This document shows, in pieces, positions 1 to 8,006 of a stretch of 8,006 bases of DNA. Position 1 is the stretch's first letter. Each line of letters begins with the position of its first letter. Source of the DNA: a virus (Duplodnaviria; Heunggongvirae; Uroviricota; Caudoviricetes); IMG/VR virus record IMGVR_UViG_2585427795_000008, one strand, 5' to 3'. Position numbers and translations under genes: made by a program. Under the pieces are notes generated by a model. That model was given only the letters and a program-made list of their open reading frames with translations. It made no database searches and was not told the origin of the DNA.

Positions 1-1143
1 CTATGCTGTTTTGATATCTACGATAATCCAGTCTTTACCACGATCATCATTGTATCGGTCGGTCATTTTTCTGGATTTATGGCCTAACAACTTTTGCGTA
101 TCCAGACCCTGTTCCCGATATAACCGTTCTGACAGAGATCGCTGCTCATGAAATGTGGGCGCAGTTCCTTGCTCCCATTTTATGCCACATTTTTCCCTGG
201 CCTTTTTAAAAGCCGTTGTCAGAGTATTTGCAGAAACCTGGTCTCCTCTGTTTGCTTGAGAGGTAGTGTGACGGTAATGGACCAGATATTTACTAACAAC
301 AGCATCCCTGCACTGAGATATAACTTCACGAAGGGTAATATTCAGAGCATCGCATTTCAGGTTAAGCGGAATAGCAAGTTTTGAACCGGTTTTTTCCTGA
401 GTAATGTGCAACATGTCGTCCCAGATATCAGAGAATTTCAAATTGCAGATATCACCTAAACGTTGTCCAGTAACAAGAGCAAGTAGCATGCCGCATTTTA
501 AATAGGGCTGCCGTCTGCTTACGCTTTCAAATATTGCCTGCCATTCTGGCAGTGACAATCTTTGGCGGTTTACTCGATTTCGCGGTTGTTTTGTTGCCTG
601 CGCTGGGTTAAATCCTGGCGGAACATGTCCTGCGTGTTGTGCTTCTTTGAAGACGTCGATCAACACCATTCTCACGACTTGCGCCATCCTGTTATGACCT
701 TCAGCCTTTACAGCATCAATTATTTCGGCAATATCAAGTGCGGTAATATCCTTGAGGTGTTGCATTCCACAATGCTCACGGAAAAGACGAATGGGTTTGC
801 CTTTTTGCCGATAGGAGTTGGGTCTTAGTTCATTATGTTGCAGCCTGTCCTCCTGGATAGAAATATATTTATCAAGCCATTCTGTCACCGTAATGTCTGA
901 GCGCCTGCCTTTCATTCTTTCCAGACGCTCATTGACGCTTAATATTTGTCTGGTACGTTGTTCAGCAATAATGGTATTTGCTTCAGTAGCAACTTGTTTT
1001 GCTTCATTCTCATCAGTTCCTAAGCTATGAAAACGACCGGATAGTGGATGTTTGTATTGCCAATATACCTTTCCGGTTCGCTTATCTAATTTGCAATATA
1101 AATTGGGTATAGAGATTTTGTGAGATCGGGGTCTAGCAGCCAT
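1..1143 (-). CDS. int: Lambda-family tyrosine recombinase (phage integrase)
   Basis: 380 aa ORF with ATG start. C-terminal region (HEQRSLSERLYREQGLDTQKLLGHKSRKMTDRYNDDRG) aligns by eye with the lambda Int catalytic region (HELRSLSARLY...LLGHKS...YRDDRG), including the conserved His/Arg and the catalytic Tyr. N-terminus resembles the lambda Int arm-binding region. Overlaps xis by 11 bp as in lambda. Confidence 0.93.
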   Translation of the reverse strand: MAARPRSHKISIPNLYCKLDKRTGKVYWQYKHPLSGRFHSLGTDENEAKQVATEANTIIAEQRTRQILSVNERLERMKGRRSDITVTEWLDKYISIQEDRLQHNELRPNSYRQKGKPIRLFREHCGMQHLKDITALDIAEIIDAVKAEGHNRMAQVVRMVLIDVFKEAQHAGHVPPGFNPAQATKQPRNRVNRQRLSLPEWQAIFESVSRRQPYLKCGMLLALVTGQRLGDICNLKFSDIWDDMLHITQEKTGSKLAIPLNLKCDALNITLREVISQCRDAVVSKYLVHYRHTTSQANRGDQVSANTLTTAFKKAREKCGIKWEQGTAPTFHEQRSLSERLYREQGLDTQKLLGHKSRKMTDRYNDDRGKDWIIVDIKTA

Positions 1144-1369
1144 CAGCGATTATCCGTTGGAGTTTTGGGTTTGCGTTTATTGGGAGTTGCGGTTCTGCAA
1201 GCGTTCCTACAAAACGGGAATTTCGGTCAATCATCCAGTAGCGACCAACTTTTATAGCGGGTGGGGCCATCATTTTCCCTTGCGCGTATTTTTTCAGAAC
1301 TCGCTCACTTGGTGCTAAGTCCCCAAATTCTTCTTTAGCCCAGTCCTGTAAAGTGATTAGTCGAGACAT
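1133..1369 (-). CDS. xis: Excisionase (Xis-like winged-helix protein)
   Basis: 78 aa ORF immediately upstream of and overlapping int. Contains an LTLQxW motif and a PP...K.GR pattern like lambda Xis. Good SD (GAGGAGG) about 5 nt before the ATG. Confidence 0.8.
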   Translation of the reverse strand: MSRLITLQDWAKEEFGDLAPSERVLKKYAQGKMMAPPAIKVGRYWMIDRNSRFVGTLAEPQLPINANPKLQRIIADGC

Positions 1370-5274: not shown

Positions 5275-5655
5275 TCAGTCAGCCCAACCTGATTTCGAGT
5301 TTATTTGGGTTTCTGACATTGTGTATTTCTTAATCGTGTCATCGTTAAAAAGAATAGTAAGTTCTTTTTTCGTACCGTTCGTTCCATTATGGAATAATCC
5401 ATAGAATGGAATAAAAGTGGTGCCATTAACTTTTACTTTTGCAAAGGCGTACTTCCAGATCTCGTTTCCACTGTCAGTATATGAAACAGCATCAGGAGAA
5501 CCAAAGTAAGATTTAACCTCATTCTTGGTTGTTTTACCTTCCTGAAGTTTAGACTGGACACTAATTTCAGTTTCATTTTTGAGTTGCTGGTTGCCTGAAG
5601 AAGCACACCCAGCCAATACAGATGCCATCATGGCAGCGATTAGGATTTTTCTCAT
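5275..5655 (-). CDS. Prophage lipoprotein with BamE/SmpA-OmlA-like domain, at the rex position
   Basis: 126 aa ORF with ATG start. Signal peptide MRKILIAAMMASVLAGC has a lipobox (LAG|C). Mature domain motifs GKTTKNEVKSYFGSPDAVSYTDSGNEIWKYAF and ELTILFNDDTIKKY resemble the BamE pattern (GMTQQQVAYALGTP...GTNTWFYVF...TLTLTFNSSGV). Region 5270-5880 is markedly AT-rich compared with its flanks. Confidence 0.8.
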   Translation of the reverse strand: MRKILIAAMMASVLAGCASSGNQQLKNETEISVQSKLQEGKTTKNEVKSYFGSPDAVSYTDSGNEIWKYAFAKVKVNGTTFIPFYGLFHNGTNGTKKELTILFNDDTIKKYTMSETQINSKSGWAD

Positions 5656-6580: not shown

Positions 6581-6609
6581 AATGTACAACCAAGGTTTTA
6601 TTTCATCAA
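6581..6609 (-). promoter_or_regulatory. Candidate PRM-like maintenance promoter for the repressor
   Basis: Minus strand TTGATG (plus 6604-6609), 17-nt spacer, TACATT (plus 6581-6586), ending about 6 nt before the repressor ATG. This would give a near-leaderless transcript as for lambda PRM. Confidence 0.35.
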
Positions 6610-6615
6610 ACGAAA

Positions 6616-6640
6616 ATGGTTGTTGACTAAAAACAACCAT
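6616..6640. promoter_or_regulatory. OR operator (perfect 9-bp inverted repeat)
   Basis: ATGGTTGTT-GACTAAA-AACAACCAT, overlapping the PR -35. Same half-site as the OL copies. Confidence 0.6.
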
Positions 6641-6651
6641 AGTTTTAATCT
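6623..6651 (+). promoter_or_regulatory. PR-like early-right promoter
   Basis: TTGACT (6623-6628), 17-nt spacer, TAATCT (6646-6651). Followed by a GGAGG SD and the cro-like ATG at 6679. Confidence 0.6.
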
Positions 6652-6678
6652 TGATTCGGATTAACCACGGAGGTTGTT

Positions 6679-6909
6679 ATGAACCCAGCAATCAAAACAG
6701 CGATCAATATCGTTGGTTCACAAAAGAAACTAGGCGATGCCTGCGAAGTTTCACAGCAGGCCGTCTATAAGTGGCTTCACAACAAAGCAAAGGTATCCCC
6801 TGAACATGTCGGCAGCATTGTTACGGCTACTGGTGGAGTTGTGAAGGCATACCAGATTCGCCCGGATCTTCCGAAGTTGTTTCCACACACCGAAAAGAAC
6901 GCAGCTTAA
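6679..6909 (+). CDS. Cro-like HTH regulator (YdaS/Cro family)
   Basis: 76 aa ORF with ATG and a GGAGG SD, divergent from the repressor. HTH-like segment (KLGDACEVSQQAVYKWLHNK) typical of Cro/YdaS-type proteins. Confidence 0.85.
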   Translation: MNPAIKTAINIVGSQKKLGDACEVSQQAVYKWLHNKAKVSPEHVGSIVTATGGVVKAYQIRPDLPKLFPHTEKNAA

Positions 6910-6921
6910 ATTTCCATTTCA

Positions 6922-6934
6922 CGCTCTTTAACAA
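6922..6934 (+). promoter_or_regulatory. boxA-like element (nutR position)
   Basis: CGCTCTTTAACAA lies between the cro-like and YdaT-like genes. It matches the boxA consensus of lambda nut sites (CGCTCTTA) and rrn operons (TGCTCTTTAACAA). No clear boxB hairpin follows. Confidence 0.45.
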
Positions 6935-6978
6935 TAAGCAATCAACTTAACAGTCAATTCAAACTAAAGGAGTCAATT

Positions 6979-7518
6979 ATGCAACCACTTACATACCAAC
7001 AGACTAGCGGATTTATTCCGACTGCGGTGATAAATCGTTCTCAAACAAAACAAGCTCCAGGCCACGAAAAAATCCGTGATGCCGTCCGCGCCTGGTCGGC
7101 TGTAGATAATCAGGATGTCGTTGCCGCACTCATTGTGAATGAGTATCGGGAGCAGGGCGACGGCACCATCGATTTCCCTGATGATGTCAGCCGTGCACGC
7201 CAGAAGCTGTTCCGCTTCCTCGATAACAAATTCGATTCTGAAAAATACCGAAATAACGTGCGTGAACTGACCCCGGCAATTCTGGCGGTACTACCGCTGG
7301 AATATCGCGGTTACCTGGTTGAGCAGGATAGCTTCATGACTCGGTTGGCTGAAATGGAAAAGGAACTCAGTGAGGCAAAACAGGCTGTCATTCTCAACGC
7401 ACCACGCCACCAGAAACTGAAGGAAATGAGTGAAGGTATTGTGTCGATGTTTCGTGTGGACCCGGATCTGGCTGGTCCATTAATGGCGATGGTGACCACC
7501 ATGCTGGGGGCAATATGA
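6979..7518 (+). CDS. YdaT-like protein at the cII position
   Basis: 179 aa ORF with ATG and an AAGGAG SD. The segment LTPAILAVLPLEYRGYL resembles E. coli Rac YdaT (IPAILAILPRELRHRL) as I recall it; NEYREQGDGTIDFP resembles EEYLRQGGGELPLVP. Not lambda cII. Confidence 0.75.
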   Translation: MQPLTYQQTSGFIPTAVINRSQTKQAPGHEKIRDAVRAWSAVDNQDVVAALIVNEYREQGDGTIDFPDDVSRARQKLFRFLDNKFDSEKYRNNVRELTPAILAVLPLEYRGYLVEQDSFMTRLAEMEKELSEAKQAVILNAPRHQKLKEMSEGIVSMFRVDPDLAGPLMAMVTTMLGAI

Positions 7519-7544
7519 CAGGTTCAGAAATGGCGAAAGTCGGT

Positions 7545-7577
7545 CTGCGGGAACAGAACCGACTTTCAGGTGCAAAT
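7545..7577 (+). other. Strong hairpin (10-bp perfect inverted repeat) downstream of the YdaT-like gene
   Basis: GAAAGTCGGT (7545-7554), 13-nt loop, ACCGACTTTC (7568-7577). The stem extends to about 13 bp with one bulge. No T-run follows; the IS903-group end begins 11 nt later. Confidence 0.5.
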
Positions 7578-7588
7578 CGGCTTTGTTG

Positions 7589-8006
7589 AATAAATCAGAT
7601 TTCGGGTAAGTCTCCCCCGTAGCGGGTTGTGTTTTCAGGCAATACGCACGCTTTCAGGCATACCTGCTTTCGTCATTTTGTTCAGCGCTCGTACCAGGGC
7701 CATAGCCTCCGCAACCTGACCATCGTAGTCACGCAGCGTCAGTGAACCCCCGAACAGCTGTTTTACCCGGTACATCGCCGTTTCCGCTATCGAGCGACGG
7801 TTGTAATCTGTTGTCCATTTCCACCGCGCATTACTCCCGGTCATTCGCTGATTAGCCACTGCACGGTTACGGTCTGCATATTCACCGGGCCAGTAACCCG
7901 CACCTTTTCGGGGAGGGATAAGGGCGCTGATTTTCTTACGCCGCAGTTCATCGTGACAGAGCCGGGTGTCGTAAGCGCCGTCTGCCGATGCTGCCCTGAT
8001 TTTTCT
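7589..8006 (-). mobile_element. IS903-group (IS5 family) insertion sequence, partial; continues past the window end
   Basis: Terminal inverted repeat GGCTTTGTTGAATAAATC at 7589-7606 matches the IS903 end as I recall it. It is followed by the C-terminal part of a transposase on the minus strand. Confidence 0.8.
7635..8006 (-). CDS. IS903-group transposase, C-terminal fragment (N-terminus lies outside the window)
   Basis: Frame is open from the window edge: ...RKISAASADGAYDTRLCHDELRRKKISALIPPRKGAGYWPGEYADRNRAVANQRMTGSNARWKWTTDYNRRSIAETAMYRVKQLFGGSLTLRDYDGQVAEAMALVRALNKMTKAGMPESVRIA. This is the typical IS903-group C-terminus. The ORF track shows only the part from an internal Met (7635..7859). 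Confidence 0.88.
   Translation of the reverse strand, partial: RKIRAASADGAYDTRLCHDELRRKKISALIPPRKGAGYWPGEYADRNRAVANQRMTGSNARWKWTTDYNRRSIAETAMYRVKQLFGGSLTLRDYDGQVAEAMALVRALNKMTKAGMPESVRIA

Follow-up and report, generated by a model that had tools for sequence, protein, structure and literature searches.

The window analysed here is the whole 8,006-nt stretch of IMG/VR record IMGVR_UViG_2585427795_000008, and coordinates refer to it unless another sequence is named. It carries full-length genes for an integrase, Xis, Exo, Bet, Gam, Kil, a repressor, a Cro-like protein and a YdaT-like protein, and each of the ten window proteins that we tested is present as the same allele on at least 1000 contigs. 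Apart from the feature at its right end, the prophage is without visible decay. The start of the window coincides with the stop codon of the 380-aa integrase (1-1369, minus strand), and the 78-aa excisionase beside the integrase is identical to Xis of phage 21 (UniRef VXIS_BPP21). This would suggest that an integration module like that of phage 21 has been combined with an immunity and replication region such as is found beside tRNA-Arg, which would be mosaicism typical of lambdoid phages. Between the kil-side genes and the repressor lies a 126-aa lipoprotein-like gene (5275-5655, minus strand), whose position is that of a lysogenic-conversion 'moron' gene; its match to the BamE domain is weak and sub-threshold (E = 1.6e-4, 21.8 bits against a cut-off of 23.2 bits). 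No N-type antiterminator gene is evident in the kil-to-repressor interval, and none is visible in the window as a whole.

YdaT has been described as the functional equivalent of lambda CII (PMC9986795), and the YdaT-like gene of the window is intact and stands in the CII position (Table 1). Many complete E. coli genomes contain prophages that match positions 6600-7579 at 100% identity. In intact relatives the genes run from a CI-like S24 repressor through a YdaS-type Cro and YdaT to a Phage_rep_O protein and then a lambda-P protein; all 10 of the 10 places returned by a look-up of the YdaT-like protein were uninterrupted, and the YdaT-to-O module occurs in isolated, viable phages at 96.7-99.8% identity (e.g. 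PhiR26_1, Perceval and IdasGreatGrand). In the window, 60 nt past the YdaT-like stop codon (TGA, 7516-7518), one end of an IS903B element abuts the prophage DNA, with the boundary at 7578/7579. Similarity to intact prophages breaks exactly at the first base of the IS: alignment with the intact relative GB089 gives identity through ...GTGCAAATCG, after which GB089 reads TAACACACTCATTGCGGGAGGAATTATGGCA. The uninterrupted relatives and this breakpoint alignment confirm the claim of an earlier note on this DNA that the early-right operon is cut just past the YdaT-like gene. That note had put the IS repeat at 7589, 71 bp past the stop; the repeat is real, but it begins at 7579, and each of the note's internal coordinates is 10 too high. 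The comparison of the flank with intact prophages, which the note had proposed as a check, identifies the uninterrupted continuation as a lambda O-type initiator gene followed by P.

Table 1. Features at the right end of the window and in its intact relatives.
Feature	Position	Strand	Evidence or remarks
YdaT-like gene, 179 aa, intact, in the CII position	6979..7518	+	PF06254 YdaT_toxin, E = 4.3e-30; identical in many prophages
Leader between the YdaT-like gene and O, first 60 of 87 nt	7519..7578	+	Alignment to GB089; lambda O alignment
Hybrid short ORF from ATG 7515, 24 codons plus stop	7515..7589	+	Last two codons and stop from the IS repeat
U-rich tail after the hairpin, GCCAUUUCUGAACC	7521..7534	-	Alignment A2: columns 44-46 and 48-49 invariant
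Conserved hairpin, GAAAGUCGGU.CUGU-UCCC-GCAGACCGACUUUC (minus-strand RNA)	7535..7567	-	Candidate terminator of an oop-like RNA; equals L001 7936-7968
Predicted copy of the 9-bp target duplication, GTGCAAATC	7570-7578		Nine bases preceding the IS end
IS903B, 428 of 1057 bp	7579..8006	-	428/428 identity to L002; cut by the window end
IS903B terminal inverted repeat, 18 bp, GGCTTTGTTGAATAAATC	7579-7596		Exact match; end adjoining the transposase C-terminus
Transposase, 3' part (C-terminal 123 aa plus stop)	7635..8006	-	PF01609 DDE_Tnp_1, E = 5.8e-14; NF033579, E = 2e-34
O-type initiator gene with disputed start	L001 7916-8935; equivalents in L003-L012		Called as 339 aa or as 309 aa

The element was identified from the part of it that the window holds. 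Its open frame, on the minus strand and hence antisense to rightward early transcription as the earlier note had said, has its stop at 7635-7637 and runs off the window end. The match to the IS5-family profile NF033579 covers profile positions 181-289 of 289, that is, the C-terminal 109 positions, and its score of 119 bits lies below the 140-bit cut-off only because the window holds a fragment; an identical full copy scores 348.5 bits. A complete copy (L002) measures 1057 bp and has perfect 18-bp inverted repeats, both ends of which match the window repeat. Positions 7579-8006 match thousands of plasmid records at 95-100% identity, many of them at 100%, and the transposase annotation of these 100% copies varies between IS903B family, IS903 family and generic IS5 family; many matches bear the RefSeq label 'IS5-like element IS903B family transposase'. 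Identity with IS903B was judged against L002 and the plasmid copies annotated by RefSeq rather than against the ISfinder reference. The window and IS903B share the same 18-bp terminal inverted repeat, the same DNA and an IS5-family DDE enzyme (NF033579, PF01609, PF13737), with no difference within the 428 bp present. We assign the element to the IS903 group (IS5 family); over these 428 bp nothing sets it apart from IS903B. All the features of the IS903 group that lie in the window are present, so membership of the group, which the earlier note had proposed, holds for those features. Since neither the prophage flank nor the IS differs from other copies (100% identity in each case), the insertion looks recent.

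Where the IS falls relative to coding sequence hinges on the start of O, for which annotations conflict. A 339-aa form begins at the ATGA overlap with the YdaT-like stop (window 7515), and a 309-aa form begins at an ATG 90 nt downstream; NCBI PGAP/RefSeq gives the 339-aa form in most genomes, whereas several gene calls and phage mEp237 use 309 aa. If the long form were the true gene, the IS would interrupt O at codon 22 and leave a 24-aa stub, a direct knockout of the initiator. The long form can draw on the in-frame ATG 7515, which overlaps the YdaT-like stop in an arrangement typical of translational coupling, on a frame that in this lineage runs from there into O without a stop, and on the prevailing RefSeq annotation; we nevertheless consider it improbable. 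Residues 1-299 of lambda O align to residues 31-339 of the long form (66% identity, E = 5e-146), the first 30 residues of the long form match nothing, the Pfam Phage_rep_O and TIGR01610 domains begin after the downstream ATG, and a strong Shine-Dalgarno sequence, GGGAGG, sits 5 nt before that ATG. In mEp237, moreover, O and the upstream ORF are read in different frames, and in Klebsiella phage 6 LV-2017 that ORF ends at 14 codons. In common leader variants its ATG is merely the last sense codon before the YdaT-like stop (ATGTGA), 29 of 89 variants have a break in the frame within the hairpin described below, and variation across the stretch tracks RNA pairing on the opposite strand, not codon structure. 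This comparative evidence favours a start of O at the downstream ATG.

With O starting at the downstream ATG, the IS lies in the 87-nt leader, 27 nt upstream of the O start, and the remaining 27 nt of the leader, the Shine-Dalgarno sequence and the start codon would fall beyond it. The IS is thus outside the conserved O coding sequence and inside only the lineage-specific in-frame extension. The earlier note had also described a short frame opening at ATG 7540 and ending in the IS; the frame exists, but the start in question is ATG 7530, from which it reads MAKVGLREQNRLSGANRLC and closes at a TGA (7587-7589) inside the terminal repeat. Read from either start, this short ORF is probably a lineage-specific in-frame opening of the leader fused to two codons of the IS rather than a real gene. 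The suggestion that the insertion had struck 'the next early gene or its leader' therefore holds, with the leader as the better supported of the two, given the distance to O and the lack of conservation of the short ORF as coding sequence. The same note held that intact early genes directly after a complete IS at an intergenic site would tell against its interpretation; the downstream sequence lies outside the window, and the position in the leader weakens that interpretation.

The portion of the leader retained in the window contains a conserved hairpin. In all leader variants the minus strand reads an invariant CGCC and then U-rich sequence. Against shuffled controls, fold z-scores in three lineages were -3.6, -3.5 and -5.5 for the minus strand, compared with -0.85, -0.34 and -2.47 for the plus strand. 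Searching IMG/VR with a pattern in which only outer stem bases were fixed returned 120 loci (L017-L136), which gave 75 unique variants after removal of chance hits, and the leftward fold was the more stable in 72 of these. In an alignment of 32 distinct sequences, standard pairing accounts for 98.0% of cells on the leftward strand as against 86.6% on the rightward strand, a difference that arises from U-G wobbles turning into C-A mismatches on the opposite strand. Five hairpin pairs have changed on both sides, and none of 500 shuffles reached the observed pairing or covariation; 7 of the 14 pairs were fixed by the search pattern and so carry no evidence. The G-U wobbles and compensatory changes fit the leftward strand only. 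A conserved leader peptide as the cause of the conservation of this stretch was rejected, the frame being out of phase, stopped or broken among relatives.

This leader is widespread. Among records of isolated phages, 46 have it, with Gifsy-1, Gifsy-2, SPN3UB and phages of Klebsiella and Citrobacter among them, and in lambdoid phages of E. coli, Salmonella, Klebsiella and Citrobacter the hairpin separates CII- or YdaT-type genes from a range of unrelated replication genes. Its U-tract is interrupted (CUUUCGCCAUUUCU), and a simple terminator scan did not call the hairpin in either the window or the intact relative. Rfam gave no match in the window and only chance-level matches in relatives and in lambda; since the lambda control itself gives no match, Rfam has no oop family.

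The opposite end of a putative leftward transcription unit was found in intact relatives. A promoter scan of 600 nt of the intact relative gave one hit only, TTGAAT-17-CATAAT on the minus strand, whose -10 element follows a TG and overlaps the O ATG, and the identical scan of lambda as a control recovered both p_o (TTGAGT-17-CATAAT) and the oop terminator. Of 66 distinct flanks, 50 have the -10 element of the best leftward promoter over the ATG of the replication gene, at a distance of 31-34 nt from the hairpin, and these flanks precede more than a dozen unrelated N-termini of replication proteins. In the window, the predicted position of this sigma-70-like promoter, observed over the start codon in intact relatives, is beyond the IS. 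Taken together, the conserved minus-strand hairpin and the p_o-like promoter suggest that the leader encodes an oop-like leftward antisense RNA of about 70 nt, predicted from sequence, which the IS would split.

The resemblance to lambda oop is close in layout. Both units lie between the CII-position gene and O and point leftward, and the promoter geometry is identical, with a -35 of TTGAAT here or TTGAGT in lambda, a 17-nt spacer and a TG-preceded -10, CATAAT, overlapping the O ATG. Lambda oop is 77 nt long, compared with the roughly 70 nt predicted here, and the predicted RNA, like oop, would end in a stable hairpin followed by U-rich sequence. The hairpin sequence itself, however, is unrelated to that of the lambda oop terminator, in addition to its interrupted U-tract. 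Whereas lambda oop overlaps cII, the predicted RNA would barely overlap the YdaT-like coding sequence, if at all: the hairpin (7535-7567) and its tail, which extends to about 7521, do not quite reach the YdaT-like stop, unless transcription passes the hairpin. RNA-seq has revealed an OOP-like RNA in the Salmonella prophage BTP1, at the place that corresponds to lambda oop (PMC7067206), a precedent in a lambdoid prophage other than lambda for the kind of RNA predicted here; BTP1 is not among the 46 phage records that match the leader.

With regard to how the element arrived, neither junction has a counterpart in the collections searched: the exact left junction is absent from complete E. coli genomes, GTDB species representatives, IMG/VR and JGI metagenomes, and the predicted right junction from IMG/VR and the genomes and metagenomes searched. 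We therefore turned to a base rate from IMG/VR loci with IS903B ends (L137-L237). These included 37 distinct complete copies in prophage contigs, all of 1057 bp, 28 of which are flanked by a perfect 9-bp duplication. From this base rate we put simple insertion, as opposed to REARRANGEMENT, at about three in four, with GTGCAAATC as the predicted duplication. A simple insertion would leave O and P intact 1,066 bp further right, and predicts the far-side sequence GTGCAAATCGTAACACACTCATTGCGGGAGGAATTATGGCA continuing into O, so that the sequence read across the element would be ...GATTTATTCAACAAAGCC-GTGCAAATC-GTAACACACTCATTGCGGGAGGAATTATG.

The alternative is that O, P and the late genes were deleted or moved elsewhere, either when one IS903B copy recombined with another or through a deletion or inversion that the IS caused next to itself, and that the prophage is now a truncated remnant; this is the case covered by 'lost' in the earlier note. 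The window does stop inside the IS, 9 of the 37 complete copies in prophage contigs are without a 9-bp duplication, IS903B is present in many copies in some genomes (as many as 20 places in one plasmid record), and the lack of either junction in other collections would fit such an event. Against it stand the base rate itself, the 7.6 kb of visible prophage with no other decay, and a flank identical to intact prophages, and we judge a rearrangement to be on the unlikely side.

An assembly artefact, in which a prophage contig was chimerically joined to a repeated IS, is barely credible. It could explain why the junction occurs in no other record searched, and IS903B ends often do close the stretches that we fetched: for 59 of 105 IS903B end matches in IMG/VR, less than a full IS length of sequence lay beyond the end, and such frequent contig ends are consistent with IS903B breaking assemblies. 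A random chimera, however, would not be expected to switch exactly at the first base of the terminal repeat, as transposition would, and the window carries 428 bp of the IS. The target sequence also bears on this point. The preferred IS903 target around the duplication is WTTYA-N9-TRAAW (PMC2577343, Table 1). In the inferred register the site scores 4/10, a value equalled by 53% of positions, and one base to the left it scores 8/10, reached by only 0.8% of positions. The 28 real IS903B insertions likewise fit the motif best one base to the left (mean 4.96 against 4.21), so that at IS903B sites the best fit of the published palindromic motif is shifted toward the transposase-C-terminal end. The fit to the target motif weakly supports genuine transposition. 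None of the IS903B ends fetched from IMG/VR lies in the vicinity of the leader hairpin, and the leader is thus not a hot spot.

For a simple insertion in the leader, the expected consequences concern transcription in both directions. Rightward transcripts leaving the YdaT-like gene would cross about 1 kb of untranslated antisense IS RNA. In this sense the IS has many stop codons in all three frames and a C/G ratio of 1.5-1.75 over IS positions 66-330, and no intrinsic terminator was called. The long untranslated antisense stretch, its richness in C over G and the lack of a called intrinsic terminator make Rho-dependent polarity the most plausible effect. Because no N-type antiterminator gene is visible in the window, there is no ground for assuming that antitermination would relieve this polarity.

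Lambda depends on rightward transcription for its O and P mRNA and also, in cis, for origin activation, a need that persists when O and P are provided in trans (PMC3985674). Within the O gene of an intact relative there are five palindromic iterons, TTACCYGAAWCAGGTAA (L001 8357-8473), and then an A-rich stretch; this cluster is a predicted lambda-style origin inside O, about 780 bp to the right of the insertion point. Polarity would probably lower both the expression of O and P and the transcriptional activation in cis of the origin, and the prophage is probably impaired in replication. The earlier note had gone further than the evidence in calling the prophage probably cryptic: the other genes of the window are full length and represented by common alleles, and the flank matches intact prophages at 100% identity.

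When an IS inserts between pR and the O-P genes of lambda, as in the r14 and r32 mutants, its polarity lowers O-P expression. There too an IS lies between the rightward early promoter and the replication genes; those are laboratory mutants that involve a different IS and a cro/cII module, whereas the window shows a natural prophage with a YdaS/YdaT-type module. A literature check for the lambda r32/IS2 precedent found nothing.

In the leftward direction, the IS would split the oop-like unit 16 nt after the predicted RNA start, which is placed 7-8 nt past CATAAT. As the transposase gene shares the leftward sense, the p_o-like promoter would read into it, and the hairpin would sit 11 nt past the IS end, just beyond the end of the transposase gene; this geometry requires the O leader to lie on the far side of the IS. 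On the evidence as a whole, we regard it as quite likely that a recent, simple insertion of IS903B into the 87-nt O leader imposes polarity on the replication genes and splits an oop-like unit. Somewhat short of an even chance is a more specific proposal, in which the leader would be a widespread, uncatalogued oop-type RNA gene, common to lambdoid phages of E. coli, Salmonella (Gifsy-1, Gifsy-2), Klebsiella and Citrobacter whatever replication gene follows, with IS903B inserted in its sense orientation such that the phage promoter drives the transposase and the phage terminator ends the transcript.

The feature is an ordinary, recent IS903B insertion, correctly spotted in the earlier note, and its significance as another IS that disables or attenuates a prophage is limited. 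The mode of attenuation here would be the cutting off of the replication module from its promoter, not the breakage of a gene, and a strain bearing the IS would offer a natural test of the need in cis for rightward transcription in the replication of a YdaT-type lambdoid phage. For annotation, RefSeq starts of O-type initiators are inconsistent (339 or 309 aa), and comparative evidence favours the shorter. The conserved leftward hairpin, taken with its promoter, could reasonably be proposed as a new RNA family; it is only a mildly new observation, and one that concerns the phage family rather than the insertion.

Finally, the intergenic region between the repressor and Cro-like genes (6586-6651) was inspected. 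The window as a whole shows no enrichment of the YdaT operator motif, TTGATT-N6-AATCAA: there are 2 matches with 2 mismatches, equalled in 37 of 200 shuffles. The intergenic region contains the operator-like repeats ACAACCAAGGTTTTA (6586-6600) and ACAACCATAGTTTTA (6633-6647). A palindrome at 6616-6640, ATGGTTGTTGACTAAAAACAACCAT, was flagged by the terminator scan; rather than a terminator, it more probably contains the rightward promoter's -35 element (TTGACT).
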